Positions 5,685-64,000 of a DNA stretch of 64,000 bases are shown piece after piece. Made by a program: the position numbers and the translations under genes. The notes under the pieces were generated by a model. The model saw only the letters and a list, made by a program, of their open reading frames with translations, was not told the DNA's origin and did no database searches. Each line of letters begins with the position of its first letter. Position 1 is the stretch's first letter. The stretch is from Chara braunii (taxonomy: Eukaryota; Plantae; Charophyceae), in the NCBI GenBank assembly GCA_003427395.1, contig BFEA01000027.1, positions 2,024,015 to 2,088,014 on the forward strand, written 5' to 3'.

Positions 5685-5703
5685 CCCCCCCCCCCCCATT
5701 CTC
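5685..5703 (-). promoter_or_regulatory. Polypurine tract (PPT)
   Basis: Minus strand reads GAGAAT-G13-CTGC immediately before the LTR start TGTCA. Confidence 0.85.
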
Positions 5704-5804
5704 GACGTCCTCGACGAGCGAGTATTGGGATTTGAAGGGGGAAAATTTTGCAAAAGATGTACGACTCCTAATCTCTACCCATCAACCCAAGATCATCCTC
5801 TTTG

Positions 5805-8800: not shown

Positions 8801-9319
8801 TCGTAGTTTGCCGTTTGATTTTCTTATGAAGAACCGGCGATTGGCGTAGGCGCTCTCACAAGGTTCCGCTACAAATGTCTTTATCTTCTCCTTCAGGAAG
8901 TCTACTATCATCTTTTTTTCCTTTTGCACACACTTACATTCTGCATCGTTCCATGGAGTGTGAGGGACTGTATAGATTCTTGCAGGTTTAACATATCGTG
9001 GATCTATTCGCCCTCTTTCTGCGTCACAAAAGGTTACTGCCTTGTTGCATGATCTTAATGTTTCTATTATGAGTTCTCTCTCCTTTTGCGTTACGTTTCC
9101 GTCACCTATATCCATTTCCTTTAACCTGTCTTCAGTGATTCTCCGCCCTTCAGTGGCCTTTCGTTCCCGGATCATCTGCGTAATTTCTTCTTCAGTGATC
9201 CTTATTTCCCCGGTCCTATCATGGCTAACCGCGGCTGGCTTGACTTTTTGGGCTACAGTTTTGTATCTCTTTCCCCCGCCGTGTGGGGGAATTCCTCCAA
9301 AAAAGAAAGGTTTATACAT
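5805..9319 (-). pseudogene. pol: Gypsy pol: reverse transcriptase, RNase H, integrase (disrupted)
   Basis: RT FLDD motif and GYDEIPL; RNase H GPASVGGVLAQ...NYSQFKKE...ADGLSR; integrase HHCC (HDGIVGGH...CVEC), VHVDLV, DRGSEF, YHPQTN and the WMGPY module. Frameshift near 8340 and stops at ~7047 and ~6790-6850. Confidence 0.93.
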
Positions 9320-11916
9320 CCACTGAATTCCTTGTCGTCAGCCTCTTTCTCATAAACTGTTCTGTCTACGACATACTTAGTTTCTAGGTCCTCAACGTCA
9401 ATCTTTTTTCCTCTTACTTTATGCGGTCCTAGTGTAAGGTCTTCAGATACTATTTTGCAACTTCTTGTGTTCAGTTGTCCTTTGTTTTGCAATGAGATCT
9501 TGTGACGGTTATCAAATTCATTCACGGTTTTCAAGGTAAGCCTGCTACCTTGAGGTCCATCGATGGTAACCGTCTGACTTCCGTCTCGTTTATTTTCGGT
9601 GGTGGCATTTACCCGTGTCAGCCATGTTCTTCCAAGAATTATTTCTGACGAGCAGTTCTCAACTGTAAAGACGGGCACAGTGACCTCAACTCCAGCAACC
9701 ACTATCTTGGCTTTGTGGCATACCCCGANCNCAGGTTGCTTGAGTTTGTTAGCGGNTATCATGGTCATAGCTACACTCCTGTCTACCTCTAAGCCAAGGT
9801 TTCTGGCCACCTTGTCCTCACAAACGGTGGACTCGGACCCGTCGTCGACTATAGCCTCCATCCCTATGCCATTGACTCTGACATTGAGTTTTGCACTAGC
9901 AAGGACGTAACAGTAGTTGCTTCCGCCTTCACTGGTTTGTACTGGTGTGTCTCCTTCGGTTAGTGCCGTTAGGACTGAGGTTTTCACCTCCTCCTTCTGT
10001 TGTCCAGAAGTTGTCTCTTGTAGCGGTACTTTAGTTTTCCTCATCATGCCTATTAATTCATCCCTTGTCGGGCCACAGCCTGCTATGAATTCCTTGAGGG
10101 TGATAGGAATTGGCATATTCATAGCCCTTCTTAAAGGTTCTCGTAAATCGACTTCGTCTAGCGAGCTTTTAAGGTGGAACTTCTTGGCTGCTCGTTTTCT
10201 AGGGAATTGTGGTGACTTGGGCGACTCAATTTGGTCGTCTGTCATAGGTTGATCTTGATCCTCTTTCTTTGTGTTGCTTGACTCGCCGACCCCGCCGATG
10301 TCGTGGGTACGTACGTAGACTTCTCAATTATTTTCAGCCTCCTCAAACTTAATGGATGAAATTCTTATACCTGGGCTTTCTGGTGGTTCGTCGAAGTCAT
10401 CTTCGAAAGTGACTCGGGAGATTTTGGCTGGTAATTGATCCTCGGATTGCTTACCCTTTGCTTCATTCATCCTCCTCCTTCGGATGTCTACATTAATCTT
10501 CATCGAGGGTAGGAAGGGTACCGGTTTGCCTTCATTTGCCCAAATGACGTATTTTTGATCGTCGAGTTCAATGATCCCTTCTTTTAGTGCATCTAACATT
10601 GCTTGGCAATCTCTTTTGCGGTGGTCTTCGTCTCTGCATTATATACATGCTTTATCATTCCACGTTCGCTTTGGGCTAGGGTCGGTTTTGTCGCGCGTGG
10701 CTTGGACAGAGTTTTCCTCCTTTCTTTGGTTATTACTTTGCAATCTCTCTACTGCCGCATTTAGTACTTTTATCTGTCTTGCCATCTCCTCTTCTCGTCT
10801 GTCTGGTCTTTTTGCTTTTATCTCATCTCTTGGCTTCCACCTGTTATCCTTTGTATTTGACCACTTGGAGGTTCCTCATTCCGCGTCGTTTCTTTTCCAG
10901 TCACTCCTGTTTCCTTTCCTCCATTCGCCCTCATTTTTGGTTGTATCCCCTCTTCTAGGTGAGCTCGCGTAGGTGTCCCTTCCTTCGGTTTTGGGTCTCC
11001 TATCCTCGAATTGCGATTTTCCTCCTCCCTTTTCTGTGGTTACGCCTTTTCCTAGGTTGTCAAGAACCCTCGCGAGGTGTGCTTTCGCGCTTTGGCCTTC
11101 GGTGTCATGGGTTAAAGTTTTGACTTGGCTGAACGTTACCTTAGAGGGAAGATCCCTCATAATCTTGTCTCGCTTTTCTCGAGACAAAAATCCTAGGAAT
11201 ATTCCGCACCTTTCTATTTCGCTCATAAATTCACCTTCTACTAGAGGGTTCGAAGCCTTTTCATATCTCCTTGCGAATGCTACTAGACTCTCATCGTCCT
11301 GTTTTTTTATTTCTTTTAGATCTTCTATTGAATAGGATGTTTCATGCCATGCGAAGATTCTTGTAATCCGTTCTTTGAATATTAACCAACGCCAACTGTC
11401 CGGAATGGCTTCTCTAACTTCGCGATCTATCTTGGGGGTTGTGTGGTGGAGTAGATTTATAATCATCTCCTGATCGCTCCATTCCGCTCTCATCCCCAGT
11501 ACCTCCCAGTCGTCTAAAAATTCTAAAACATTCTTTCATGTGAAGATTGTTTGGATTCCGGACAGTGTCGGTAATTGGAAGGCTTGTGCTCCCAGAAAGG
11601 GGGATATGTAAGAGTCTGGTGCATATGCCATTCTGTAAGGTTGGCTCGTGGTTTCCCTATATGGTTCTCTTGTAACGGGATCCGAGAATCGGGCTACTCT
11701 ATTTTTGTTTATAACGTCTTTCCTCCACCCTTCACTCTTAGAAGTGCGTTCCTCGAGTTCTGTGGCTGTAGTTTCTAACTCTTTTAGGGCCTTGCTCAAA
11801 TTTTTGGCGTCCTTTGTGACATCAGTTGTCATTTTCCTAACTGGGGTGCTCATCCTTGATTCTTGTGTTTTGACTTCGCCGCCTATCGAAGATAGATAGA
11901 CTCCTTCCGCATCCAT
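9253..11916 (-). pseudogene. gag: Gypsy gag + aspartic protease (one frame, several premature stops)
   Basis: ORFs starting 11916, 11493, 10599 and 10245 share one frame. Motifs: F-x-x-KNVLEFLDDWE, zinc knuckle CI*CRDEDHRKRDC (~10605-10650), protease AIVDDGSE. Confidence 0.88.
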
Positions 11917-11925
11917 ATTTTTTTC

Positions 11926-12428
11926 TCACTCTTCCAAAAGTTGATCCAAGGCAACTTTAACTCTTTCCGTCGATTCTTCTAGTAGCTCTTGCAATGTGTT
12001 GAAGTCTTCGTCTTTCCCTTCAGCTTTGACGACTAAGGCGGTAGCTAAAACGGTTTGTAAGTAGCGTGAGTTGGCCTCCAACGTATTTAGGGATATGCCA
12101 TCAACTATTACGTTGGCGAGTTCTCCTAGAGCTCGAGCGTCCTCTCTTAATTTTTCTACAGATGTGGCTATCGTTTCTCTCCAGGTGCGTGGGATTGTTT
12201 GTCCGCTAGGGTTTACAGTGAGGATTTGTATTCTTACGAGAAAAAGCTCTCCTGCAGCGTTCCAGATGACACACTTCCTGACTTCTATTACTGCTTTTGT
12301 GGCGCACTCGTTTTCCTCTTCTTGGCTTAATTGCTCATTATGTACTGCTTCCACCACGACTCGTACTAAGGACCCTTCTGTTTCTGCTCTGCCTGAGATA
12401 CTAAATTTTTGCCTTCTAGGTTCGACAT
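11926..12428 (-). pseudogene. Accessory ORF I, unknown (family beta, paralog of ORF D); 1-nt frameshift near the N-terminus
   Basis: ATG at 12428 overlaps the previous stop (TAATG). Length 503 nt, one short of a codon multiple. Ends 9 nt before the gag ATG. Confidence 0.6.
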
Positions 12429-12948
12429 TAGTCCTTCCTTTGTTTGTTAGTGTCTTCTCGGTCTTGCTTCAGGCGTCTAGCAATGAAATCATTTCGCCAT
12501 CCTATAATGTTCTCCCTTTCTTCTCTATAGATTGCGACAAGACGTTCGATGTTTTTTTCCAGTCTATTTAAGTTGGCTTCGTCCGTAGAACCACGTCATT
12601 CATGGTATTTTGTTAGCGACTCTTCGACCTTCCTCTCAATTGGGTCTAAGTATACTTATAGGATGACATCAATTTTTGGATCTCTTCCCCGTACACGTGT
12701 GTTCGTGCTTCTTGAATTGCCTTTTCCTTCTCTATCTCGCACTTCATCCATCTCTCGACCCAGATTATCACACTGTAGGCTATGCGATTCTATGTTCTAA
12801 CTTGTGCTAGTGTCCTTGGTCTTTCGCGCTGTATAGCTTCTTGTGCTAATCGTCGACAATCTAATGTGTCTAGTGCTCTAGAGGTTTGGATCCGAATAAT
12901 GGAAGTTATAGTCCCTGCGAAGAATACCCGATTCACTTCCTCTTACAT
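12428..12948 (-). pseudogene. Accessory ORF H, unknown helical protein, decayed
   Basis: Protein-like frames (EEVNRVFFAGTITSIIRIQ...; YLDPIERKVEESL...RLEKNIERLVAIY) with stops and a frameshift. Confidence 0.45.
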
Positions 12949-12980
12949 CAGTTACTGCTCCCGGTATTATTGAGTTCGTT

Positions 12981-13409
12981 TTATGCCCTCTTCACTTTCC
13001 ATACGAGGTCTATTACGGCCGACCATTCATTGTTAGCGAGCGTAAGCCCTTCAACTGTTGGTGACGGTATTCCAATGAAAGGCCTAACGTAGGTACTCTA
13101 CGAGAAATTCGTCCTTAATTGTTGGAGTCTTCTCTTCTTGTCATGCACTATGTTCGAGGCCCGTTGCCAACAACGACCTTTTTCGTCTTCCTTAAACCTA
13201 TGTTGCGGCACGTATATTCCCACATTATACTCATCAAGGTTGATGAAGGACTAGGTGATGACATACATACCATCAATCCTCCATCCCTGACTTTTTAGAC
13301 CTTCGTATCTCACGATCTCATATGGGATCACTGCTCTCTTCGATATAGAGTTAAGGGAACGGACCAACTTCCTCGACTTCCCCTCATCTAGTTTCCTACA
13401 CCTCCTCAT
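12981..13409 (-). pseudogene. Accessory ORF G, unknown (family alpha), 142 codons with two internal TAG
   Basis: Manual translation ...IPYEIVRYE...MYVIT*SFINLDEYNVGIYVP...GRCWQRA...; aligns along its length with ORF E. Absent from the ORF track. Confidence 0.75.
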
Positions 13410-13487
13410 CCTTGGTGAAGTCCCCTAGCATGGCTTCTAATTCTGCTCTTGGTCTTGGAAGCGTTCTCTTTCTTGGTCTTCTTTGCA

Positions 13488-13817
13488 CTACTCCTCCACT
13501 GCCCTCACGACTCCAATCAATTTTCCTCTGTCGTCTTTTATCTCGTGCTCACCTTCTACTCCGAACAGGCCTGTGTCAAGGTAGAGTTCCCCTTCTTGAT
13601 CTCGTAGGCAAGAGGCTCCTCTCTTAATCTCTATCAACCCTGTTTCATTAGATCGAACTCTCCTACAGATCGTCGTGCCTAGAGTATACAAGTCCTCCTG
13701 GGTCCATTCTGTCAAAAGTCTGAGCAACTCTTGGGATCTCCACCTATCATGATCACGCTGTCTTAGTTCATTTGATATATCCCCTCCAAGCTGCCTATTC
13801 TCGTTCCCTCTGGTCAT
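13488..13817 (-). CDS. Accessory ORF F, unknown (109 aa; may read through to ~13395)
   Basis: ATG start overlapping the end of ORF E by 23 nt. Confidence 0.55.
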   Translation of the reverse strand: MTRGNENRQLGGDISNELRQRDHDRWRSQELLRLLTEWTQEDLYTLGTTICRRVRSNETGLIEIKRGASCLRDQEGELYLDTGLFGVEGEHEIKDDRGKLIGVVRAVEE

Positions 13818-14307
13818 TCGGGTTATGGTGTCGGTTTATGAAATCAATTATTAAACCTCGACCGATCCCTGTCAATGCTTCGTAAGGAATCCGCGGCCTA
13901 GACAAGTCTTCAAAGATCCTGATTTCGGTACTCCAAGCGACTTCTTTCTTTAAGGAAAGGAGTCTATCCTTCTCGTCCTCCACCACTTCTCTCGCTCTTT
14001 GTCAGCAACGTCCATACGCTAAATCGTCCGATCTTTTCGTTGGTAGGTAAATGCCTACGTCTCTTACCTCAGTCCCTAGGAAGCGCGCGGTCATAACATA
14101 GAGGCGGCTCAGTTCCCATGCGATGTCGACCATCTCATAGGCTTCCACTTCATACGGAAACTCCTCCCTTCTTCCTAGGGTACTCAAGGATGCACACACC
14201 GCATCAAACTTCTCTTGTGGCGGTCGGTTCCCAGCGATGATCTTATTATCCCACTCTTCGAGTTTCTCTGCAGACTTCTTATGCCTTACTCGTTCATGAC
14301 CCAGCAT
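13795..14307 (-). pseudogene. Accessory ORF E, unknown (family alpha), 170 codons with one internal TGA
   Basis: Track ORFs 14002..14331 and 13795..13986 are in frame. GRC*QRA matches GRCWQRA in ORF G. Confidence 0.75.
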
Positions 14308-14324
14308 TCTTTTGCCACGCTTGC

Positions 14325-14594
14325 CTAACACAACCGGGCTCGTTCCCTAACCAGACAATAGTATCTTTTTTCAGAGGTCTTTAGTCTTTCTACCTTCAGT
14401 AGATAACTGATCTCGGTTTGGTTGGTAATTACCCTCAAAGCCGACTCCCTCATACGATCGAAATAAGGTTGTATGAGTTGAAGTTCTTCAAACCCAAAGA
14501 GATCTATATCAGGAATTCGGAGGGTGCCCTCAACTTTTACCATTCTCTCTTCCGCGATAGCCCTGAAGGAGAATTGTTCCCTAAGACCCGGCAT
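14325..14594 (-). CDS. Accessory ORF D, unknown (family beta), 89 aa
   Basis: ATG 1 nt after the ORF C stop (TAGGATG); similar to ORF I. Confidence 0.65.
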   Translation of the reverse strand: MPGLREQFSFRAIAEERMVKVEGTLRIPDIDLFGFEELQLIQPYFDRMRESALRVITNQTEISYLLKVERLKTSEKRYYCLVRERARLC

Positions 14595-14595
14595 C

Positions 14596-15015
14596 CTACT
14601 GACCCCAACTCCTTGCTCTGAGCGTCATATTAATTAAAGGCTCCCAGTTCTTGTCGTCTGTAAAACTGTTAGGTAGACTAGGTTCTGGAACCCCATAGAA
14701 TAGAACCGGTGATGAGTCACTGATTACTTTCTCTCCTCTCCTTTCTAATTCCTTCCTTTCCTGGCTGATGACGGTTTTAATTCAGTTTCTAAACGACGCT
14801 CGTTCAGTTCCCCTCTCACTCAATAGGGGTATATAGGGTCTAATGTCGTATTCCCCTGTATCAAGGTGTTTTACCACAAGGACATGGGCTTTCCCAGGAG
14901 CGTGGCGTTCCTCCATTGATATACAGCTTTCTATTTTGTAAGGAAACGCCCCCCCACTAGTAATAGGGACTAAGGTGTCTAGGGCCGTTGTGACCCTAGG
15001 GCAATAACCTGACAT
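14596..15015 (-). pseudogene. Accessory ORF C, unknown (family alpha), 139 codons with one internal TGA
   Basis: GGAFPYKIES...HVLVVKHLDTGEYDIRPYIP; reads in frame past 14782 to the TAG at 14596; homolog at 59004-59345. Confidence 0.75.
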
Positions 15016-15082
15016 TTTCGATTCGCTATCCTTTTATCGTTACTCTTCTGCGCGTTCGTCCTCACAGGCAGCTTCACCGAGG

Positions 15083-16210
15083 TCACTCTAGGCTCATCCG
15101 GACACCCAGTCGTGACCATCGTCCCTCGACATATTCTTCTATTTCGGTAGCGCTCCTGAAGTACCCCACCCTTTCCTCAAGAAAAGTTGCGACGTCTTCC
15201 CACTCTTCACGGTCGTCGTCCCTTAATCGTTCCCACTCGGCTAGATCCCAATCTTCTTCCCCATAGTATATGTCCTCATCGTTTACTGCCTCTGTCCCTT
15301 CGTAGTATGTCCGGAGTTCGTAGAACCCAATGAGTGAACCTTCCCTAACCGACGAGTCGTATCCAGGAGTCCCGTATAACTCGGCTATACCAGCTAGGTG
15401 GCTCGGCGGCTCCCTCAGGGCTCTATCCAAAGCGGTCCAGAATTCGGCCGATTGATCAAACCTCAGTGCCTCTCTAAGATCTCTAGGTGAAATAGCTCTA
15501 ATTAGCTCTACCAATTCCAAAGTCGACTCCCCGAACCTAGGCCCTTCCTTCCAGAGCGTGTAGTAGGCGTGATCTTCGTCACTGCTCCTCAAAAGGTTTC
15601 TAATCTCGAGGAAAGCTCGGTAGACCTCAATAAGGCGGCCAAGTCCCCCTAGAAATCCTTCCAAGACGAAACCCGGGACGGGCAGCCTCAAAGTTTGTTC
15701 GGGTTGGGGCAAGAACCCTTCTCTAGCCAGTCGAAGCGAGACCACTACCGACCTATAGTCCCTGTCGTAGCAGCGTTCCTTCCCCCTTAGCTTGTCGACC
15801 ACTTCCTGCAGTATGCGTCGCGTTGTTACCTCGTCTGCCCAGGTATGAGAGTCGAGACTCGGAATTACCCCTAAAACCTGATCCCAGCGACTTCGTTGTA
15901 CAGCTTGGAAAACTATGTCCGCTAGAACGGAAGACTGATAGTAGAGGAAGCCTCTGACCGCTAATTCCAGGGATTCTTTTATAAGCCCGCCTCTCCTGTC
16001 GAACTCACACCCTACCTGGGGCGCGACCAGCAACCAGACCCCCGACCTCAACAGGATAGATCTTCACTCCTTATCTACTTTATCCAGATATCCTCACCTA
16101 ACAGCTTGCCCAGGCAAGGTAAATTCCACCCAATCTTCTCCAATGAACTCGGGTTCCCTATAGTCGAAGTGACAAAGCTCAACTGGGTGCTCTATCTCGT
16201 CGTGAGGCAT
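15083..16210 (-). pseudogene. Accessory ORF B, unknown, ~375 aa with acidic C-terminus; two early TGA
   Basis: ATG directly follows the ORF A stop (TAGATG); in frame with the 322-aa track ORF 15083..16051. Confidence 0.7.
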
Positions 16211-16918
16211 CTAGTCGTCCACGGAGCTCCCGTCTAAAATCCGGCCCCTGTTTATCTCCCCACTTGTCTCCGCTCTCCTTACCTCGTCTCTGACCCTAAA
16301 CACGATTCTGCGCAACTGTCTACGCGTGGGAATTGCTCGGTCTAGACAGTAGGTAAGTAACCAGGCTCGCTCGACGGTAGTTATCCTGAACTGCGTCGCC
16401 CTCTGCACTACAGCTCGTAGCCTCTGATGTCTCACCTCATCGCCAAAGACTACTTCTGTGAGGAATCTAGGAACGATAACCGCTCTCACAGACGTAGCTC
16501 TAGGCAGCTCCCAGTCGTACGCAAAATGCACCGTGTAGAAGGCTACCGAGTCGGCTTCACTCCTCTTCACAAACTCACTGAACACTCTCGCACCGAATCT
16601 ACATGCTAATGATGTCAGGCATAAGAGAGTGTGACAATGACGGGCAGTCTCTATCACTAGATACCTCCACTCCTGGTCTGAGAGATATAATCTAACATTC
16701 ACTTCTGCGCGAAGGGGTTCGCTAGCCCTGTCCCTTCTAACACACACTCTAGGCTCCGCCTCAATTCTCACCCACAGGAAGACGCCCTCGCGTATGACTA
16801 GACCTCGTTGTACGGACGACCTATACTTGCTCGATCCTTCCAAAGGAAGACTAATGATGTCACAGAAGCCGCTACGTTCAACGAGATGTATTCGAGACTC
16901 CGATTCGATGTAAACCAT
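16211..16918 (-). CDS. Accessory ORF A, unknown, 235 aa intact
   Basis: Open frame with its ATG 2 nt downstream of a strong 3' splice site (TTTTTTATTTTGCTTAG|GAATG). Confidence 0.75.
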   Translation of the reverse strand: MVYIESESRIHLVERSGFCDIISLPLEGSSKYRSSVQRGLVIREGVFLWVRIEAEPRVCVRRDRASEPLRAEVNVRLYLSDQEWRYLVIETARHCHTLLCLTSLACRFGARVFSEFVKRSEADSVAFYTVHFAYDWELPRATSVRAVIVPRFLTEVVFGDEVRHQRLRAVVQRATQFRITTVERAWLLTYCLDRAIPTRRQLRRIVFRVRDEVRRAETSGEINRGRILDGSSVDD

Positions 16919-17219
16919 TCCTAAGCAAAATAAAAAATGGTTCTCTCTCAGTATGTCACTCCCTGTGCCACTCTCAGACTGTTGAGCTCAAAGACCCCCA
17001 CGACAGGCCTCCTCTGATCACCCCTGTATCCCTTCAAGACGTCAACAGGCCTACAAGAGAACCGCCCTCTGGCGTATCTCTTCCTACCCTCGTGTCAAGA
17101 AGGAGGTCGGATCAATGTGCCATCGTCGCTGGCCTACCTTCCCTGTCGCAACCTGAGCACGAGCCGGCCAACTCATGTGCTCTAGGGTGGACCGAAGTCA
17201 CACGCGAATAGGGAGGCGG

Positions 17220-20200
17220 TGTCTCACTCGCGGGAGGGTCGGTCAGGGCTCCTGTAACCTGCACAAAACAAGTCAGTCCACATCAACAAATACAAGTACC
17301 GTAGCCGACCATGACCAATGCAATAAGAAACTCACGAAACACTGTCTGGCAGAAATAACAGAAGTAGTTTCATTCAATCCAAACCAATAGGATGGGAAAC
17401 ACTCGTCCCGGCCTCAGCCGTACACCTCGCTCCTGTGTCTGGAAAGTCTGTCTAAGTCCCTAGTCAACAAACGTCGTCTAATCCTCCTCCCGATTGGGTG
17501 ACGCCTGTAACGTGCTCGTCGATCCCAAAGAATAGTGCTCGAACTCTCAGTGTCGGAAGTAGCCTCCCTCGCCTATCGAGGCCAAAGCTCCAGATCCACC
17601 GTGACCATAGTTCGGGTGTGCCCCCTCGGAAGGCCTGCTTCACGAAAGTACCCGCTCGAGAAGCCCCCTTCGGACGTACCCCTTCGGAAAGCCCTTTTCA
17701 CGAAAGTACCCCCTCGAGAAGCCCTCTTCGGACGTACCCCTTCGGAAAGCCCGCTTCATGAAAGTACCTCTTCGGGATATTATCCCCCCCTCAGTAAAAT
17801 GCGGCGAAAGTGTCCGTCTGGTAAAGTACCTGTCTGGTAAGTGTGTCCGCTCAGTAAAAATGGCCGCTCGGTAAAACGTCTATTCGGTAAAACACCCTCT
17901 TCGGTAAATGTGTCCCTTCACTAAAATACCCTTCCGTCGAGTGTCCCTCCGGTAGCGTACCCGTTCGGGAAGACAGCCCCCTCCGTCGAGTGTCCCCGTC
18001 GAGTGTCCCTCAGGTAACGTACCCGTTCGGGAAGAAAGCCCCCTCCGTTGAGTGTCCCCGTCGAGTGTCCCTCAGGTAGCGTACCCATTCGGGTAAAAGC
18101 CCCCTCCGTCGACTGCTCCCGTCAAGTGTCCCTCTCGTAGCGTACTCGTTCGGGTAAAAAAAACCCTCCGTCGAGTGTTCCGGTCGAGTGTCCCTCCGGT
18201 AGCGTACCCGCTCGGGTAAAAAAAGTCCCCTCCGTCGAGCCTGGTTCGGATAGCGTCCCTTCACGGGGCCATACTTAGTCTGGTTCTAGTCGATGTCCCA
18301 AAAGCCCTGTCTCGTTCCATGTCCCGATCCGCGCCCGATGGCCCCGGTCCGGTCCGATCTGGTGATCTGCTCCCCATAACCTGGTTCGGCGAGATGGCCG
18401 ATCTGTGCCCCGTAGCCCGGTTCTATTCAGAGACCCAAAGCCGCGTCCAAAGATGCCACCTTGCGTGGTGCCCGGACGTTCCAGCTGCTTCCCTGTTCGT
18501 ATGCCCACAAGCACGGGGTGGCCATGCTCAGTTGCGTGTTCGTGGGCGCATGAGTGCGCGGTAGGCGCTCGTAGTCGAAGGTAGCAAGCACCTCTAGGCC
18601 ACTCTCCTCCTCCATACACTGATGCGCGCCGATGCGCGTAGAATCCCCTCCCCCGTGGCTCTCTCTCTCTCTCCAGCACGCTGATGTGCGCTGGGTCCCC
18701 GCTGCTCTCTCTCTCCAGTGAAGTGATGCGCGCGGACGCACGCAGGCTCCCCGCGCTCTCTCTCTCGAGTGAACTGATGCGCGCGGATGCGCGCAGGATT
18801 CCCGCGCTCTCTCTCTCCAGTAAACTGATGCGCGCGGATGCGCGCAGGATTCCCCTCCCCGAATCCGCTAGTGCGCGAGAGGCCACGCTGCCTGTCCGCT
18901 AGTGTGTGAGTGCTTCCGCCCTCGGTCCGTGAGTGCGCGTGTCGCCCCGCTGCCTGTCCGCAGGTGCGCGGGTGCGCCCTCCCCTAATCCGCTAGTGCGC
19001 GGATGGCCGCGCTGCCAATCTCCAAGTTCGCGGGTGCTCCCGCCCTCGGTCCGTGAGTGCGCGGGTGATCGCACAGCGTGTCCGCAGGTGCGCGAGTGCC
19101 CCCGCCCCGAGTTCACTAGATCGCGGGTGACCGCGCTGCGTGTCCGCAGGTGCGCGGGTGCTCCAGCCCCGGGTTCGCTAGTGCGCAGGTGACCGCGCCG
19201 TGTGTCCGCAGGTGCACGGGTGCTCCCGCCCCGAGTCCGCTAGTGCGCGGGTGACCGCCCTGCGTTTCCGCAGGTGCGTGGGTGCGCACGCACAGGTGCG
19301 TGAGCTGCGCGCCCGATCCGATGGTGCGCGCGTGCGCGCGCGCAGGTGCGTGAGCTGCGCGCCCGATCCGATAGTGCCCGAGTGCGCGGGCGGGGTTGCG
19401 CGCGGCTGCGCGCACGTGCGCCCTTTCCCGACTGTGAGCGGCGAGGTTGCGCGCACATGCGCCCGATCCCAACTGTGCGCAGGCGGGGCTCCGCGCGGCT
19501 GCGCGCACGTGCGCCCGATCCCGACTGTGTGCGGACGGGCAGCCGCGCCCGTGCGCCCGTGCGTGACTATCCACCTGTGTTACCTGGTTCTCCCCGTTCT
19601 TCGTGCGTGGTGCTCCCTCTCTCCTCCGTGCGCCTCCAACTCGTGCATGCGAGAAGTGTCCTGTGCCTGGGCCCGGTTTGGCTTATATGCTCTGTCGGGC
19701 CCTTCTCGGAGTGCAAGCCTTGGTCCTCGTGTGCTCTGTGGCAGCCGACAACTTGCAGCGCCCGGTACCGGGCCTGTGCCTGAGCCTGATTGGGCCTTCG
19801 AAAAGTTCCAGGCGAAAAGGGCCTTCCCATCGGGAACTGGGCCCTTTGCAGCGCCCTGGTACCGCAGCTGTTCCCGAGCCTGTCCCAGGCCTGCCCGGGC
19901 CTATGCGGTTCCCACATAGCAGCGGTGCCGCTCTTAGGGAAAATCCAGGCTGGGCCCCGTAAGTAAAAAAAAAAAAAACGGTCTCGAATCAATTGGGCCG
20001 AGGCGGACCCCTCGCCCTAGCGGAACCGCCCCTTCAAAGGAAAATCCAACCAGCCGAGTGGCCCCCTCGCCCGTGGCGCCCGCCTGCGTCATGGTCGGTG
20101 AACCCCGGCTAGGTAAAGTAGCCCCCTTGATTGTACCATCCGTCTGCCTCGGTGTCGGCGAGTCCTGACCACGCAAAATAACGCCAAAGAGAAATGTCAC

Positions 20201-20386
20201 CATTCTGCCCCTTCGGAGTGTCGTCTCGTCGCACGATCAGTAAACAGTGGTGACCTTGATGGTCATGGTGTTGGTCTGCCTCATGGTCGGTGAACCCCGG
20301 CCAGATAGAATACTGTCGAGTGGAGTTGTTGTCGCGTGCCATCTGAAAGGAAGTAAAGGGCGGCGTAATATTGTAGCCGCCCGACA
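17220..20386 (-). repeat. 5' LTR of the Gypsy element
   Basis: Colinear with 2473-5680; starts TGTCGG on the minus strand; differs by substitutions and repeat copy number. Confidence 0.9.
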
Positions 20387-20732
20387 ACGTTTTGCGTGAA
20401 CTGCCGACGTAGCGGCAAACAAAGAACTCCGGAGTTCCGAAGGCCCAACCCAGGTACGCGGCGGCCTGCGCCACGTGGCGGCCCCCGACGGCCCAACTTT
20501 TCGGGACCATCTCCACCACGGAGGGATTTTCCCGTAACCCGTCGCCCATAGTGTCCCGGCCCCTTCGGACTGTGAGACCCTTGCGCGCGCACCCCTCATT
20601 CGCCTAATTGCATTCATACCCTTAAGACTCCCCCACTTCCCCAAAAATCCTTGGCACACCCCTTTTCGCACTTCCAGGCCCACATCCCACTCCGATCAGG
20701 AAGTCGCGCTGGGCGTGAGGTTGGGCGTCACA
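20387..20732. mobile_element. Solo LTR family X, right part
   Basis: Ends CGTCACA; reverse complement of 20630-20732 matches 61037-61140. Confidence 0.8.
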
Positions 20733-20809
20733 TTCTCAGCACCACTAGCACTGCAGGGGGGGCATGTTTTCTTAAAAAGAAAAAAGAAAAAAAAAAGAAA
20801 AAAAAAGAA
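20733..20809 (+). mobile_element. Remainder of the L1 tail from 1-351 with polyA
   Basis: CAGCACCACTAGCACTG...TTTTCTTAAAA matches the end of the tail at 31680-31740. Confidence 0.8.
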
Positions 20810-53005: not shown

Positions 53006-54030
53006 TTTTTTTTTTTTTTTTTTTTTTTTGATGGGAACAAGGCTCCAATCTATTCGTGGGGGGCAGCACGTGCTGGGAACCGGGCCTAGCGTCCCATATG
53101 GAATTTTTTACGTAGGAGTTTTGAAAATTTGAGATATTTGAGATACCGGGGCCATTACCCGGCTTTGGCTAGGAAAAATTCAAATTACTTAGCAAATTAC
53201 TACGACGAACTTCAGGAATAAGCAAAGTTCAGAAAACGACTCAGAAACCCTCCATCAATCCTCTTTACCTCACTCCGGCAAGACTTACTGCAGCAGAGCC
53301 ACCATCTCCACTGCTGCTGTACCCTATTTCCGTCCTACAGGCTAGCCCCCTCACTAGTAGGACGCTTGATATCCAACCATCTACTTCTCCATGCAGAGGG
53401 CCCTTTCGTTTTTAGAAGAGCATTCAGATCGAGAAATACCTGGCTTAGAGCCTTTCAGCAGCCCACCCCTACCTGCCTCATCCTATATCCCGATACTTAG
53501 CTTCTACTAGGCCTCACGCCCCCAGCTGGTAGGTTACAGAGTGACACAGCCCACCCCAGAAAACTCCCCCCTACTAGGCTACAGGGCAAAACGACCCGCC
53601 CCGGCTCCGACCAGCATCGTCTGAGTACCAGCTTACCAAAGGACACTAGAGTGTCTTTCGCCCTCGACAACTCCCCAGATCTCTCTATCAGGTCTCTTGC
53701 CCTCGTATAGCTCGAGTTACAGGGCAGAGCGACCAAGCCCCAGCATCGACCAGCGTCGTTCTGGCCTCGTCCATTCGCAAGCACACGGGCCACGGCGACC
53801 CAAGACTACAGCAAATACCAGACAAGCCACCAATCAACAACATAACTGTAGATCCGATCACTCAGCTCCTTCGGGCGCTGGTTGCAGATATCCCACATAA
53901 AATCCCTCACAACCCTACTCCGGCAAGTCATACTGCGATGAAGTCACCATCTTCACCGCAGTTGTACCCTATTTCCACCCTGTATGTTAGCCCCATGGCC
54001 GCAAAGCGCATTATCCCCCACCATCGCAAC
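53006..54030 (-). mobile_element. Nested LINE 3' fragment with TSD-like flanks
   Basis: T-run plus tail motif (53040-53095); flanked by CCCATC(T/C)TACCTT near-duplicates (~52993 and ~54031); internal duplication 53270-53350 / 53914-53995. Confidence 0.7.
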
Positions 54031-57000
54031 CCATCCTACCTTATCGTATGCTTTCTCCTTATCTAGTAGTAGAATCGCTACTTCCCATTTTCCCCTCCAA
54101 TGACCTATAGAGCTTGGGTTGTCGCTAATATGTTTTCAAAAATCGGCCGTCCCTTGATAAACCCGCCTTGCTCCCACCCAATTAAACCGGGAAGTAGGGT
54201 CACGGTAGCAAGGCGGAACGCAAAGGTTTTTGCAAACAGTTTGGACATTATGTTAAGAACAGATATGGGGCGTCAGTTGCGCACATATCTTTTATCCCCC
54301 TTTCTGTAAAGAAAGGATATGGCCCCCTTGTCAAAGTTTTTGGGGAAAACCCTTATTACTCTTATGTGATTGTATATTTCGCATATAAAGGGCTCAAAAG
54401 TATTCCACGCGGCCAAGAAAAGTTATATTGGGAGGCCATCCAGGCCTGGGCATTTGCCCACGGTCATCTGTTTGGCTGCCTAATAGAGTTATGGGTTTGT
54501 GAATGGTCCATCCAAGTGCTGATGAAAGCAACTGTTTGTTAGAGAACATAAAAAATCTGAAAATTCGGAGAGGTCCGAGTCAGGTGAGTCAAAGGGACGC
54601 CTTGTGGTGACTATGTCTTTGAAGTAATCATGGGCATAGGTACACAAGGTCTGCTTGTCTGCAGCTACCAAGGCGTTGAGTGCGAAGAGGTGGGAGAATT
54701 CACGAATTAAAGGCCTAACTTGTTTTAAGATAATAGATCTTAATGTTAATGTAATCATGCGGTGGTATCCTACTACTCCACGAATCTTCAGCCAGTCCAG
54801 CCAATTGGCTTGCTTCCAATTTTCTAACTTTTCTAATTGGAGGAGAGCGTCCTTTATTTTTTCAAACCAATAATAATCTTCAAATAAGAAAAAAAAAAAA
54901 AAAAAAAAAAGATTCACACTCATATTTGCATCAGACTCTTGGACGAGTTTAACCAGGGTTTTCTCTTTCCATGTTCTGTTTACTGCTTTCATTTGGGAAA
55001 ATCCCTTAAAACTGGCTTGGATTATATTAATTTCAAATTCGGTCCATGTGACCAGTTCTGGAAAGAGATCTTTGGCTTCACCCCAACGAGTCATTTGAGA
55101 GTTGACCCAATTTATTAGACCCTGATCCTTCAGGATGTTAACATTTAGTCTGAAGGGGGGTCTGAAACGGACAACCTGTTCCTTTGAGATAATGTTCATC
55201 GTTACAGGGAGTTCATCTGACATCGAGGATACCATAATATCTACACTCATACACTGATCTCAAGGCGTGGCCCCTGCTTAAGAAGAAGTCCAATCTTCGA
55301 TAGGGAATGGGGGCACGGGGTGCCGGTCTTGGTCCCTGCCACGTGTATCCATGGTCTGTGGGGTTAAAGATTTTAAATGCGTCATTGAGGGTTTGCGCCA
55401 TTGTGAATGTAGAGAGTGCTAATATGTCTGCTCTCAGGGGTCTAAGATCGGGGGAGTCTAGTCCCGGATTAAAAATTTGTATTCCAATCGCCTGCCATAA
55501 TCAGGTTCTCAGTATCCAACAGGTAATTGAGTAGGGTCTCGAAAAAAATAACTCTGTCTTGGTATTTAACTGAACTAGTCTTCGTCATCCATTGAGAACT
55601 TTATCTGGGCCGTCTGTGCCAGAGCATTGGCTAATGATTATAACGTCTAAATCCTTGTTGATTAGAATAGCTACCCCGCCCTTGGAGCCCACTTCGGGGG
55701 ACCACACTTGGTTACTATCCCATTAATTTTGAAGATTATTTATTTTATCTTCGCACAATTTGGTCTCTTGAAGGCATGTGATATGAATGTTGTGTGAATG
55801 GATAAAGGAGCGCAATTCGCTCTTCTTGTTCCTCTTCACCATATCACCTAGTCCACGTGTGTTCCAAGTTAATAATCTAACGTGGTTTGGAAGGACTATT
55901 GTTTGGGTCGTTATCTCTTGCTTTTTTGACGCGGATAACTGTGTCCTTCTTGACCTTGAGTATCTTGTTTTTTGTCTCTCTATGCACGCAGACTGTTTGC
56001 GAAACGATCAGGAAAAAGGATGTCTCTTGTGTTGCCCTGCTTCAGCCATTCGATTATCTGCAGGGTTGGACAACCAGTTGTGACTCCAATATCAAGAAGG
56101 GAGTCTATCACGGTGTCTAGCAGATGGGCCAACGACAGCCAATGGATGCGTTGGGGCCGCCATAATTTTGTATCTTGTTTGAATTCCAGTACAGATAGAA
56201 AGGCCGCATGTCAGATGACTCTTTCCCCATTAGTACCAGTAGGGAGGATTCTGCCTTTTCACGGCTCTGCGAGGAGGAAGTTGGAACCCGCCCCTTGATC
56301 TGGGTTGCTGATGAGGAGGTTGTTACCGGGTGAGCTGGCAAGCACCGGGATTCGTCGTCTGTCATTTATGTTAGAACCATCGCCCCTTGAAGGGTATGGA
56401 CACAAACCAGAGGAATGATGTACTCTTGAATTTGACCTTTAAGCTTTTCGACTCTTGTGAAAGTGGACATCGATGGAACGAACAATGCTTGCCTCGCATT
56501 TTTGGAAGAGACCTTCTTTCTCCTATGAGTCGAACGGGTCAGACTCGGTGAGTGCGTGCGACAAGTTTCGTCGATTTTATCATTATTGAGTTTCACTCTC
56601 GTCTTTTTTTCAGGGTTGCGTAGACTCCTTTAGAAGATTGACCTTTATCGTTGTTCGTGGTGCACGAATCAGGGACCGAATCCGATCCTTTGGATTTTAT
56701 TTCCTCTTTATCGGATGTATGTTGGCCGTCTCTGGAATCCACAAAATGCTCCTAAGAGGAGGGAGTCTGTGTTTTTCGGGGTGTGGCCATGATTGTCTCG
56801 TGATGAGGCTCTTTGCCCGCCTCCTCGGGGAAGGATGTGGCATAAGCCACAGTCGAATAGGAAGAAGTAAATTTCGAAGTGGCTTTCGCCCCATTCTCCA
56901 CCAGGGAGGGTCGTGTGCTTAGGATCAGGATGAGAGAGTTTCATCAACGCCTCTACATCACTTACTATATCGTCGTCTCACAACATTGCTACATCCTTTC

Positions 57001-58078
57001 CTATTTCCTCATCTTTATCCTTTTGCTCTCAATCCGAATAGGAATGATACTCATAAGGGTGTTGTGTGTTGCTTGCTCAAACAAAGGCAAAACTTTAACC
57101 GATGTTGTAGTGTATGTGTCACGCAACGAATTGATATTAAGAAAGAGAGGGATGACCTTAACTACAAACAAACGTGCTGGCAACAAAAACGATATAATAT
57201 TAGCTAGTAAGGTAGAAGATATCAATAATTGGCGCGAGGTGGAAAAAAAAGCAACACGTATCTGTAAAGCTATAGGGAAATATTTATTAGCGTCGCCAGA
57301 CGTTGTGCGAATAAAATAATAACGATGTTCGCAGACAAAAAAACTGTCCAAAAACTGCATCGCCTGGTATTTGGGTCAACCATGGACGTGTTGCGTGCCT
57401 CAAGTTCCTTGAGATGTCTCGCCTTATATTAGCCGCCAATTTTTATTTTTTTTAACTTGCACTATTGGTCACGTGCACCTGGATGCAGTAGTTGCTATGA
57501 ACGGAGCAATTGGACGCTATACAGAGTATGTTCATAGTTGTGTAATTTGTAAAATTCTATAACATATAACAGACATGTTGGTTTAAAATATTCATAATCT
57601 AATCCGATGAAACTCGTGAATTATGTTCGTCTACACGCTCTACTTGCATGATGGAAATCGGTCAAAGCAGCTCACATGGAAACAGATCCTCTCATCACAC
57701 CCCGTCAACAATTGAGGAGGAAACAAATTATCTTATCACACCCCATCAACAATTGAGGATATGATAATTTTAGGCAAAAACATCTAGACGATTGGGATAA
57801 TCGATGAATTTTTACATTATGAGCACATAAATGTTGAAAATAAAGTTTTGACCGCATGAAGAAGTTTTGTCGATAATGAGTTTTGTTAACGGGCAATAGA
57901 CGATCTTGTGCGATATTGTATCACATGTATGATACTTGTACGCAATGGAGGAAGAGGTTGACATCTCAGTATCGAGGAAAGACGTTGTTGGCCCTCTAGA
58001 GATGTTAGTGAATTGGAGGGAGGTATGTCTGAAATAGGATTAAGACGCAAATGACAAAAAAAAACAAAAAGTGTGCAC

Positions 58079-58591
58079 ATGGCATTTCATTGGTAGGAGA
58101 GAATTTCTCTCACCGGTGATGTTATACTATTATAGTCGAATGCGAGTATACAATAGAGACAAGACATAGTGACAATTTTTACAACAGTGAAGGTCACTGA
58201 CACAAAAATGAATGTGTTGTTCAATGCAAGAGAAGAATTATGAGACCCCGCAGGTTCGAACAAACTCGAAAAATTCCACAATCGGTTAGAAATTCATGCG
58301 GCACTTAGAAAAAAGTTAGTGTACATGGTTGATAGCTCGGTGCATGTTCAACTTCACTATCTTTTTTATAACTGTAAGAAAATAGTATTCACAATCGAAC
58401 ACATAAAATACGACACGGATGAAGTGATCCGTACTGAGCAGTATCATCCGTCGGGACAAAAAAAAGTATCGTTCGTGGGTGACAAACAAAATATAGTTGT
58501 AGATTATCCATACTCTGAAGACGGGAAACATATAAGGAATTCTGAAGCACTTATATTCAATGCATGGAATGAAGACCATAAGGTAGCATAG
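58079..58591 (+). pseudogene. Decayed unknown ORF (~170 codons)
   Basis: In-frame upstream extension of track ORF 58319..58591 through several stops. Confidence 0.4.
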
Positions 58592-59003
58592 CACATAAAA
58601 CATTGAAAGGATATATATTCAACAATTGATGAGCTTCATCGATGACATGGGTTGCTCAAATGCTTACTCAGAATACACACGTGCAAGGGGAATAAAACAA
58701 TGATATTTTATACCGGTTGAAGTTATGAAAAATGAAAGTTAAAAAACACATGAATTTTTAAAGTGCGAAATAAGTCCAATGTGAGGTTATAATGAAGGAG
58801 ACAACGATCATGAACAGAATATTGTGTGTTGAATGTAATAACGTTTTTGAGGTTTCAAGAATTCATTTTTTTTATTTTTTTTTTGCGTGTTGTGCAAATA
58901 TCAATTTTGAAAAATCAATCTCATTTTGAATTTTCACGCTCGATGTTAGCATGTACGAGTGGGTGAATCAACATAGTTTGTTTTTGTACCTTATAAACCA
59001 ATG

Positions 59004-59345
59004 ATGAATGTCACTCCCGTTGCAGTGTCAGCAGGGGCAGCGATTACCACAACCGGAGGAGCATTTCCATACAAATACGAGTCAATAGTGATATGTGAAC
59101 TGCGTGGATGCAATTTGTTTGTAGTTGTCGTAAAGTTTATGAATATCGACATATATGACGTGCACATTTATAGATGACAGAGACAAATGAGACAAGAGAA
59201 CGATTACGCAGAATGTCATCAAACAACTTTGCAAGCCCACGAAGAAAAAAAAACAGCACTGAAGCGAGAGGGCAGAAGACTTGAAGGATGGTCGACTTTC
59301 ACAACTGAGTTTCAGAGCATGTTTGTTCCACCTATCCCGAGGTGA
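59004..59345 (+). pseudogene. Family alpha homolog (related to Gypsy accessory ORF C)
   Basis: ITTTGGAFPYKYESIVICELRGCNLFVVVVKFMNIDIYDVHIY aligns with ORF C ITSGGAFPYKIES...VLVVKHLDTGEYDIRPY. Confidence 0.75.
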
Positions 59346-61036
59346 ATGTTAGAGGGCTCACACAAAGCGACCATGTGGATTCCCATCATGAATGTAGTCA
59401 ATCAGATTCATGGGTAATGGGAAAGCAGGGTAATGTTAAGTGGTGGACGAGGAGTCATGTTGAAATACATTGTATATTGTATAGCAATATGAAACAATTT
59501 TAAGTTTTGTACTTATATACACTGTATTTATTGTAACAAACTCGTAGAAATATGACCAAGATTCACCATTTCACAAGAAAGACAAAAAGGTAAAAAACAA
59601 AACGGTGTGCATTTACATGTATGAAAAGGGTTGGCATCGAATGTATGCAGCTATTTATAGGCATAGAGACATATTATTTTTTGTTTTTTTTTTACGACGA
59701 TGATTGAAAAAAAGGTACATCGAGATACTTTTTTGTATTAGGCATATGATTATATGCCCAAATGATGTTGTTTTTATAATATATTACAAAAACTTGCTGT
59801 GAATTAAGCGAATAATAAATCCACGGTGCTTTTCTTATACATTGTCCCACAAATTTCGACAATATAGTATAAAAATTTGTTAAATTTAAAAAAAAAAAAA
59901 AATCATCAAATATGAACATACGTGCACTTGAAAAACAAAACCCCATAGCAAAAGCATAGATTACAAGCGAATGTCGAGTCAGTTTCATTATATTTCCCGG
60001 TAAATTCAATGAATGGTATCATATAAATAATGTGATAGTTAAATTGCTTGAGAACGGAAAAAGTTTAAAAAAAAACACTTTCAAATTTCAATTTCGTTCA
60101 AAAAATAAAAAATGTCCGTTGTGACGAAATCGTTGTTGAGTCAGAACGCACATCATCAGTTAGACTATATTCGGAGTCGGAAGTAGATTCCATAACCGCA
60201 TATGATTCGTCTACATCTAAATTGTCCAGGGGAACTCCATCCTCGGCTCTCTCGGGTTGATCCTTCTGATTATGGTCGACTGGAGGTCCCAAATGAGAAG
60301 GGGTGGGGAACTCGTCTTCCCTTTATCGCCCAGGCCATCCGCCGTGTGTTGTTCGGAAGGTTTCTCATGGGGGTGCTTAGGGGGGGTTTTAGGAAACTTT
60401 TAAAGGGATTTTTCAGAGGGGGGTTTGAGGGGTCTTCTTCGAGGATTTTTCTGAGGGTTCCGATGGACTAGGAGCTTTAGGTGGGGAGTCTCTTTTTTCT
60501 TTGTTTTTGTCGTTCGAAGGTTTGTCTTGGGGTTCGATTTAACAGCTTTAGTGTATGATCTCTTCTTTTTGAGTCATTCCTCATCCTCTTTTGAATGAAA
60601 GTGACGACGACATACCTGACACCACAGGGTTGTTGCACAAACAACCTCAATCGCAACCTCTGCACGGGGGCCCAGGTCTACCAACAGGTAGCGCTTGTAT
60701 TTGAGCCTTGCCGCTGACTCGAGGTCAAAGCGCACATTCATGAGATGGGGGCACTTCCTATCTGAATAGGCAGGATACTTCTTAATTAACGTTGTCCCAT
60801 ATGTATCCTCGATTATGCCCAGGATAGGGGCTAGGGCTGCAATTTGTCCCTGGAGCAGATTTGTCCGGAAGAATTCCTTCCGTATAATATTGGCTTAGGA
60901 TGCCTCCAACTCGCTGTTTTCTTCCTCTGTTATAGAGGAGGATGTCTGTGAAGCCATGGTACATCAACCTTTGTGACCTACTAGGATGTAACTCCTATAT
61001 AAGCTACCGAAATCCAATACCATAATATTTTAACTA

Positions 61037-62761
61037 TGTGACACCCAACCTCACGCCTGGCGCGACTTCCTGTTCGGAGTGTGAGTGGGTCTGGAAGTGC
61101 GAAAAAGGGGTGTGCCAAGGATTTTTGGGAAAGTGGGGATGGAGTCTCAGGCCGGAACTGAGATCTTCTGTGGCAGGTTTCAGAGATAGGAATGCAAGAG
61201 GATGGGGGCGGGTCGAAGTCTGTTCCTATGCTTCTGAGAGTGGGTTTACCACCTCTGCTGGTTCCGTCGTCTAGGTTAGACTCGTATTTGGTGCACGGGC
61301 GGGACGCTATGGCTATCGCGCTGTCTGACCACTTGTTAGCGTCGTGCATCGCTGGTCTCAGAATCCGACGCGGCTGGCCTTAGCCGAAGGCTGTGCGCCC
61401 GTCGTTCTTCGTCTGAGCGAGTTCGTTGGATGAAACCGGAGGCTCGGTACTCGCGGTTTTGTGAGCACTCCGAGCACAGGGGTTGGGGCCAATAAGGGGC
61501 AATTGCGTGTCAGGGGATGACGACCAGCTAAGGGAAGGGCAATATGCGGTGGTAGGGAGGGAAGTCGGTTTCCAAAATAATTACTCCCGGTTCTACGATA
61601 AGGTGACACGCGTATGAGCTGGGAAAATTTCGGGTGGTGGGGTATGCCCTCTCAAAGCTCAGTCGATGTCCAACTTGCAGATACACTCGTTTCCCACCGG
61701 GTATGGAAATTCAGGAAGTTCTCCCCTCGGTCGTGCAGACAGAGGCACGTGCTCCACTGCTCCCAATACTCCCGGAATTCTGGATCCCTCAGACACTCGC
61801 GGTCAGTAATGCGAAAAGGGAGTTCAATATTCATGTTGTGGGGTGAGGTGAAAGCTCGGTAATTCAAAAAGTTGGGCCGAGCACAGGCGTTGTAGACACG
61901 CGTGTAGGCCACATTCTTCTGATCGAGCTTACACGTGCGCGCACAAGGCTTGCCCTTCGGTCCGATGAACAAGGACCAGTGACCCGCGTCTCATACGCGC
62001 TGGCTCGTTAACCGAGGGTGGATAGTCCTATCGGGAGGCAGACATCTAATCATCTAGTAGGCTTAGGTAATTTCGACAGAAAAATACCCATCGTCCACTC
62101 GTCCAGTTTCATGCATTCGTAAACAAAAAGAAGGTGACAATCGTTCATGCCTCGAGATCGTACAAAACTCTATTGTAGGCAATTAACCGATCAATGCGGT
62201 CCATCCATATAGAGGGAAGAACAAAGAGAGAGAAACAATCATGCACCAATCAGTAGAGACAAACAAAGAAAGGATCCAAGATGCCGATCAAAGGGGGCAA
62301 GGGCGGTTTGCGCCAAATACCAAAATTGTTCAGAGGGATAGAAGAGGATTGCCACAACATCATCCTACAGTGAGACGGTCATCTAATAATCTATCAAACC
62401 TATCCTATATATGCAGAACCACGCCCATCATCCATGCATCAAGGTTCATGCAATGCCTCCTTGGACCATCGGTTCGACACCACCCAAGGTCCAATCATCG
62501 TGGATCGATCAATTAGATCCATCAATCTAAGGGGTCAGAGAAGGGGAGGGGGAAGAAGACAACCATTTCTCAGCACCCAAGGAGAGCAAATGAAAACATA
62601 CACGTCAACAAAACAGAGCATATGGCAAGTCCGAACAACGAATGCCGATCCCGAAGGGAAAAAGCGGGGCGACTCGCGCCGAATACCAAAATTGCTAAGA
62701 AGCAAGGAAGAATAATAAAAAATGGCTTAGAGGGATAAAAAAAAAAGCTCGTCACACACTT

Positions 62762-63818: not shown

Positions 63819-63885
63819 ATTGATTGATTGATTGATTGATTGATTGATGATTGATTGATTGATTGATTGATGATTGCTTGATTGC

Positions 63886-63955
<70 letters not shown>
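63819..63955. repeat. (TTGA)n microsatellite
   Basis: Direct reading. Confidence 0.97.
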
Positions 63956-64000
63956 AATGAAGAAAGAAAACGAAAAAAATGATGCCGCGTACCTTTTTTT

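Follow-up and report, generated by a model that had tools for sequence, protein, structure and literature searches.

Features of the locus

A stretch of 64,000 nucleotides (nt) of the Chara braunii genome (contig BFEA01000027.1, positions 2,024,015 to 2,088,014; hereafter the window) was analyzed around an AT-rich block that interrupts an L1 retrotransposon. The block contains a copy of a gene, here named alpha, that also occurs in a Gypsy long terminal repeat (LTR) retrotransposon of the same window. Open reading frames (ORFs), repeats and element boundaries were placed as follows, with protein lengths in amino acids (aa).

~57038-60137, no strand assigned: inserted block; copy of a multi-ORF repeat of no known class, truncated on the left (left edge at 57038-57042)
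57041-57319, plus strand: 3' part of ORF-x (~92 aa of a Chara gene of ~280 aa), from tblastn and shuffles
57500-58170, plus strand: two degraded segments that relatives conserve, probably further ORFs (depth peaks of 140-450 versus 17-45 nearby)
58208-58591, plus strand: ORF o4, 127 codons, one internal TGA at 58241, with third-position variants
59001-59417, plus strand: alpha-family pseudogene, 138 codons, ATG at 59001, TAA at 59415, internal TGA at 59175 and 59343
60086-60137, plus strand: right terminus, common to a very abundant repeat family, with a fixed end and variable flanks
60138-61030, minus strand: upstream part of L1 ORF1, from translation and a match to P0016 (labelled DUF4283) at E 1.5e-6
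53800-57037, minus strand: rest of the L1, from translation: last codons of ORF1, then APE endonuclease and reverse transcriptase (RT), degraded
2475-20386, minus strand: Gypsy LTR retrotransposon with LTRs of ~3.1 kb (83-86% identical), protease, RT, RNase H and integrase
14596-15015, minus strand: Gypsy alpha paralog g1 (ORF C), from alignment score and profile
13795-14307, minus strand: Gypsy alpha paralog g2, 42% identical to P0001 over 152 aa
12981-13409, minus strand: Gypsy alpha paralog g3, 42% identical to P0001 over 131 aa

Homology of the alpha genes

The initial annotation had proposed that the block ORF is a homolog of ORF C and had allowed that the similarity might prove insignificant. 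The local alignment score was 88, a value reached by 0 of 5000 shuffles (shuffle maximum 57), and a hidden Markov model (HMM) built from the three Gypsy alphas alone found the block ORF at E 3e-14, with the next unrelated match at E 2.8; the similarity is therefore significant. All six pairs among the block copy and the three Gypsy copies scored above 2000 of 2000 shuffles. The extent given earlier for the block ORF, 59004-59345, was corrected to 59001-59417, since an internal TGA lies at 59175 and the homology continues beyond the second TGA (59343) up to the TAA at 59415.

In the Gypsy element, ORF C is immediately followed by the paralogs g2 and g3, and the whole alpha cluster lies upstream of gag. 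Two further Gypsy ORFs ahead of the alphas, at 16987-16214 (258 aa) and 16063-15086 (326 aa), had no Pfam or PHROG match. The Gypsy LTRs are rich in GC tandem repeats.

Limits and insertion site of the block

The limits of the block were obtained by placing public contigs and reads (samples X1, X4 and X7) onto the region. One X1 contig (depth 9.6) represents a sister L1 copy without the block, in which only four other letters separate 57037 from 60138, so the block was delimited to approximately 57038-60137, with 4 nt of the target replaced and at most 2 nt (GA) repeated. Contigs of the second sample (X4, records 9 and 15) span both block junctions, and the insertion is thus common to both samples. 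It lies a few codons ahead of the L1 ORF1 stop. The earlier limits of 57055-60150 were accordingly moved, whereas the distinct composition claimed for the 3.1 kb stood: the block has a GC content of 35.4%, compared with a minimum of 43.1% in 364 other N-free windows of 3.1 kb. The interruption of an L1 ORF1 was likewise borne out, nearly clean by the sister-copy joint apart from the 4 nt replaced, and APE and RT motifs of the L1 are present.

The best score for a terminal inverted repeat (TIR) between the block ends was 9, which was matched by 438 of 1000 shuffles and is at the level of chance; neither a target-site duplication (TSD) longer than 2 nt nor a poly(A) tract was found at the block ends, nor were short terminal direct repeats at its true ends, the left of which is truncated in this copy. 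A 3 nt TSD (ATA) with an imperfect TIR at ends guessed at first was rejected, since the sister-copy joint puts the ends elsewhere and the TIR score is at chance. At the nucleotide level the block matched neither the LTRs nor the Gypsy interior, and its sole non-self match was a 35 nt A-rich run; blastn and six-frame tblastn searches of the block against the masked window returned only the alpha paralogs and a 28 aa match at E 0.018. The description of the block as free of gag/pol, LTR and TIR agrees with these results.

Genes within the block

Besides alpha, the one gene recognized at the outset, the block was found to hold further genes and an ultra-abundant right terminus. At its start, 57041-57316 matched the last 98 residues of ORF-x (P0014 181-278) in tblastn at E 4.6e-13, and P0019 matched at E 2e-10; P0008 and P0009 matched the first 30 codons of the block, with 0 of 1000 shuffles as good. 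The left edge of the block therefore cuts this gene near residue 181 of ~280. The two degraded segments at 57500-58170 had no protein match. A 48 nt tandem duplication at 57665-57765 is missing in some relatives of the block (joint 57697 to 57746). No match to o4 was found in Pfam, PHROG or phage records, the only lead being a MORN-like one (0.81) in the ESM Atlas.

Among the X1 records placed on 56850-60075 (245), 187 were less than 90% identical to the block. Mean depth over alpha was 196, against 25 in eight non-coding bins. Variants fell at third codon positions in 6 of 7 cases in o4 and in 3 of 3 in alpha, together 9 of 10 (P 3.6e-4), these being the 10 of 40 displayed rows that fall in o4 or alpha, with another 756 rows outside the display. 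At the stop codons 58241 and 59343, most relatives have another letter. From the third-position bias, the depth peaks and the stops absent in most relatives, it follows that both o4 and alpha are genuine genes, belonging to a repeat family that shows a signal of selection, and that the block copy has decayed. RNA runs placed few reads on o4 and alpha, at less than 90-95% identity (7 in X7), too few to use; there was no RNA among the listed records matching the region. An Rfam scan gave 0 hits, hammerhead ribozymes included.

The right terminus

Summed depth at 60121 was 106,539 in X1 and 195,628 in X4, with single contigs at 7-10 (X1) and 14-20 (X4); depth is not copy number, and these values give an order of magnitude only, about 10^4. 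Records that leave the alignment behind 60137 numbered 229 (X1) and 234 (X4), with an agreement of 0.33 and unrelated flanks, and a variant end was seen in records leaving behind 60130 (106 in X1, 127 in X4). Most holders of 60086-60137 diverge from the block upstream of 60086. The loose ends at 60137 and 60130, together with the differing upstream sequence, point to a fixed element terminus under many internal sequences; some relatives of the block align further, across the AT-rich tail to ~60054.

The terminus letters end in GTT and are followed by GAG outside. A 13 nt imperfect inverted repeat at 60091-60130 (z 0.8 and 0.3) was reached by 841 of 5000 shuffles and is not significant here. 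No second copy of the terminus was found within the window, and neither the terminus nor the proteins were found in the Joint Genome Institute (JGI) metagenome and IMG/VR contigs searched. In one X4 contig the terminus unit 60089-60120 is repeated head to tail, which hints at subterminal tandem repeats in some members.

Relatives in Chara gene models

A profile of the four alphas was compared with 1.84 billion proteins and gave 10 matches at E <=0.001, comprising four C. braunii gene models, five short ENA contigs and one fish repeat protein. The fish match (P0010) was rejected as a low-complexity helix match. Word-seeded protein searches with the block alpha and with the 4-row alignment returned nothing; the full HMMER scan alone found these relatives. 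A search with residues 1-340 of P0008 retrieved 14 Chara models and defined ORF-x (~280 aa).

Fifteen Chara models were examined. The ORF-x motif was present in 13 of the 15, and nine combined ORF-x with pieces of one large common protein; this protein is repeatedly fused to ORF-x (P0014, P0015, P0017-P0023). Its motifs recall what we take to be ParB-like and methyltransferase-like domains, with no support from Pfam, PHROG, NCBIfam or the PDB. In three of the 15, ORF-x is followed in frame by alpha, the same order as in the block, and a fourth has the same alpha without ORF-x. P0008, P0009, P0012 and P0024 share an in-frame junction, from the C-terminal helix of ORF-x into alpha, at different loci, which suggests a natural fusion subfamily. 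P0009 and P0012 carry a partial second alpha besides. The C-terminal domain of ORF-x was also considered as a distant alpha and rejected (hhalign probability 0.9%), and the predicted structure of P0014 was too poor to use (predicted local distance difference test, pLDDT, 37.7).

The enzymes appended to these models vary: a Mutator-like domain, a Harbinger domain, an RT with a chromodomain, and a protein with an L1 ORF1 label. In P0008 alpha is followed by the Mutator-like domain PF20700 at E 0.0016, which is below the cut-off, and in P0012 by a Harbinger DDE domain; a Pfam DDE match was thus present in 2 of the 15 models, in different families and in one case below the cut-off. Since the appended enzymes differ between models, they were read as chance neighbors, and the models look like chimeras with neighboring transposons rather than carriers of a partner enzyme.

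Phylogeny of alpha

In a tree of 16 rows, the block alpha grouped with the ORF-x-linked alphas with support of 82/88, which rose to 95/93 without the three long rows P0004, P0006 and P0007. The block alpha and the ORF-x-linked alphas also have two indels in common, one of which occurs in P0004. A clade of the block alpha with g1 was rejected by the approximately unbiased test (p-AU 0.010). The pairwise best match of the block alpha is nevertheless the g1-type P0011 (65.5 bits), just over P0024 (61.2 bits), which tempers the result of the tree. From these sequence comparisons, the alphas of the block and the ORF-x models appear to be a lineage separate from those of Gypsy. Because the tree is without a root, nothing is claimed about which way alpha was transferred. 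The earlier proposal that alpha moves between different mobile elements was upheld as far as the presence of the gene in two kinds of element is concerned, the L1-inserted block and Gypsy; as regards the movement itself, in direction and timing, it stays a proposal, no autonomous partner having been found.

Nature of the inserted element

The block is probably a non-Gypsy multi-gene mobile element that shares alpha with Gypsy. It is best read as a copy, left-truncated, pseudogenized and non-autonomous, of a large Chara element that is unclassified and whose right terminus is fixed. The alternative offered by the initial annotation, an unclassified element, is the one that fits: the block belongs to a repeat family whose genes have an order of their own (ORF-x ... 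alpha) and whose terminus is fixed. Alpha is likely an accessory module that was also acquired by the Gypsy lineage, which suggests that unrelated transposons are likely to swap accessory genes.

Mechanistically, an enzyme that recognizes the 52 nt terminus, most likely a rolling-circle, Helitron-like transposase, would have copied the block into the L1, acting in trans; transfer would have begun at the conserved end, halted inside ORF-x and replaced 4 nt of the target. A fixed end with very many holders and the lack of TSD, TIR and poly(A) are best fitted by rolling-circle transposition, and this carrier class was given the highest odds, though they fall short of even. Helitron-like elements lack a TSD, and their right end is better conserved than the left, according to excerpts of PMC5148889 and PMC11417382 (all papers below are likewise cited from parts of their text).

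Several points weigh against this reading. The terminus ends in GTT and not in CTRR, the insertion site is neither A^T nor T^T, and in this copy the terminus hairpin does not reach significance. A truncated left side together with a small loss of target is more typical of target-primed retroelements. No Rep, helicase or other transposase was tied to the cassette in the 15 ORF-x/alpha models. Alpha had no significant Pfam, PHROG, PDB-sequence or fold match (best fold Z 5.1), the empty site rests on one paralogous contig, and the abundance of the terminus is read from depth. In addition, groupings of the block alpha with the wider g1 or g2/g3 groups were not rejected (p-AU 0.08).

A large TIR DNA transposon (Mutator-, Kolobok- or Harbinger-like) with cargo, of which the 52 nt would be one TIR and whose left arm would have been lost by abortive transposition or deletion, was considered rather unlikely. 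It would account for a fixed end on very many copies, as in families of miniature inverted-repeat transposable elements, and for the Mutator-like and Harbinger DDE domains that follow alpha in P0008 and P0012, but the transposases fused in the models disagree, and this truncated copy has no inverted partner in the block and no TSD. A later deletion would moreover have to end nearly at the insertion site, as merely 4 nt of the target were lost.

A 5'-truncated target-primed retroelement (Penelope-, Terminon-like or dependent on a long interspersed nuclear element), with a 3' tail in common with an abundant partner, was judged unlikely. Every ORF in the block points to the conserved end, and 5' truncation (in one copy) and a small loss of target are as such an element would leave them. 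High-copy Penelope-like elements (PLEs) occur in Chara, where non-autonomous Chlamys elements have 3' ends in common with their partners (PMC8557442, in part), and multi-ORF, 5'-truncated Terminons have ORFs in common with LTR elements (PMC5408684, in part). Against this, the 3' ends of the eight curated C. braunii PLE consensuses in the consulted part of PMC8557442 are unlike the terminus, and two core terminus motifs are absent from the part of the PLE supplement covered, where line breaks or cut runs could hide a match. Neither a poly(A) nor a variable tail is evident in the block, and there was no Rfam or hammerhead hit.

The relic of an endogenous DNA virus that gave alpha to Gypsy, which the initial annotation had offered as another possibility, is improbable. 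AT-richness, compactness and co-oriented small ORFs would suit a virus, as would the weak MORN-like lead of o4 and a Clandestinovirus protein as the best BFVD row (E 5e-3). The searches lent the proposal no support, however, and turned up no viral relatives for alpha, ORF-x, o4 or the terminus: the 3.1 kb block had none among known viruses in IMG/VR, phage records or PHROGs, the alpha profile matched no viral-labelled protein among the 1.84 billion, and the terminus behaves as a transposon end.

An internal fragment of a distant Gypsy subfamily, alone or together with a separate small high-copy element, is very improbable: the three alpha copies in Gypsy, the RT or gag-like pieces in four alpha-bearing models and the divergence of most terminus holders upstream of 60086 speak for it, but ORF-x and o4 have no homolog in Gypsy, there is no DNA similarity, the GC content of the block is 11 points under that of the Gypsy interior, and some relatives align through the AT-rich tail to ~60054. 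For the related Gypsy subfamily that the initial annotation had named as a possible source, no LTR, gag or pol homology was seen, and the clade of the block alpha with g1 was rejected. The ORF-x cassette itself could conceivably have a very distant origin in an LTR element.

Comparison with known systems

Accessory ORFs common to LTR retrotransposons and another element type have been described in bdelloid rotifers (PMC5408684, with context in PMC6431247; both in part). As in the LTR/Athena-Terminon ORF3 pool of PMC5408684, one type of accessory ORF occurs here in unrelated elements of one genome and is read as exchange. In the described part of the bdelloid pool, however, known enzymes (DEDDy, GDSL) lie downstream of pol and both carriers are retroelements, whereas the present gene has no known family or fold, is triplicated upstream of gag, and has a second carrier that is unclassified and possibly a DNA element.

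Non-autonomous HLE1/HLE2 elements (PMC5148889, PMC11417382, as excerpted) resemble the block in the lack of a TSD, a conserved right end under many internal sequences, and gene cargo. The block differs from the elements as described there in that it lacks CTRR, an A^T or T^T site and a short terminal inverted repeat, its left end being truncated, and in that no RepHel was found; its cargo is a conserved gene set and not host fragments. As to the HLE2 features, the junction in the sister copy lacks a TT, and within the block, whose left end is missing, no partner repeat was seen. Replitrons (PMC10288648, in part) are HUH elements of the green lineage and mostly lack a TSD, but their short terminal direct repeats and single Rep gene were not seen in the block; the word "braunii" does not occur in the main text of that paper.

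VANDAL Mutator-like elements with VANB/VANC (PMC13547354, in part) are likewise multi-gene DNA elements with lineage-specific accessory proteins and offer a model for the role of alpha. Unlike in the VANDAL elements of that excerpt, there is no sequence or fold link of alpha to VANC, and neither a MuDR transposase nor a TSD is tied to the block. The Chlamys/PLE-X elements of C. braunii (PMC8557442, in part) share with the block a high copy number, 5' truncation and the same likely host; their listed 3' ends differ, and none among the rows listed is described with ORF-x-, o4- or alpha-like genes. As neither the canonical Helitron end motifs and target sites nor a linked Rep, a matching PLE 3' end, Replitron features or viral support were found, the element was filed under no known family.

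Literature searches, with a scope excluding the Chara genome paper and Repbase, returned no description of the alpha family or its carrier element. The sharing of ORFs among retroelements has precedent; what appears new, and apparently unnamed, is an orphan gene that is triplicated upstream of gag and has an unclassified second carrier. Transposon accessory genes are mostly uncharacterized, and few cases of their sharing between element types are documented, most of them among retroelements.

Predicted properties of the alpha protein

An AlphaFold model on a 9-row alignment (first row P0002) had a pLDDT of 79.7 and consisted of a helix, a three-strand meander, a long helix and a strand; the prediction is of a small alpha/beta protein without conserved catalytic residues. 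The only invariant columns are V, Y and L, which would argue against an enzyme. A reading of the topology as similar to a double-stranded RNA-binding domain was discarded, there being no such fold among the matches listed. By analogy with VANC (PMC13547354, in part), alpha might tentatively be proposed to bind nucleic acid or a host chromatin or silencing protein to the benefit of the element. An orphan family that selection has maintained in two unrelated carriers, and that is triplicated in one of them, is a good candidate for a general counter-defense factor.

On a bolder and doubtful extension, the block would be a piece of an undescribed superfamily of giant transposons in Chara, with about ten thousand termini, a cassette of ORF-x, o4, alpha and the large partner protein without known folds, and an unrecognized transposase; alpha would then be a portable anti-silencing module that was traded with LTR retrotransposons and amplified there in tandem. 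The 52 nt terminus provides a handle for classifying a repeat that may rank among the most abundant unclassified ones in Chara, a relative of land plants, and several "hypothetical" Chara gene models appear to be chimeras in which this element is joined to neighboring transposons.

Other repeats in the window

A second very abundant repeat begins at 61037 (61037-61500), with bin depth up to ~39,000 in X1 and 76,000 in X4 and with loose ends before 61037; an inverted relative of it is located at 20685-20733. A dispersed repeat of 60-110 nt with a conserved core was found in at least a dozen copies, some of them beside poly(T). Its plus-strand copies are at 25538, 27860, 31906, 35525, 42435, 51341 and 53041, several others are on the minus strand, and it may be similar to a short interspersed nuclear element or consist of L1 3' ends. 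A (GATT)n microsatellite follows an AT-rich stretch at 63820-63957.

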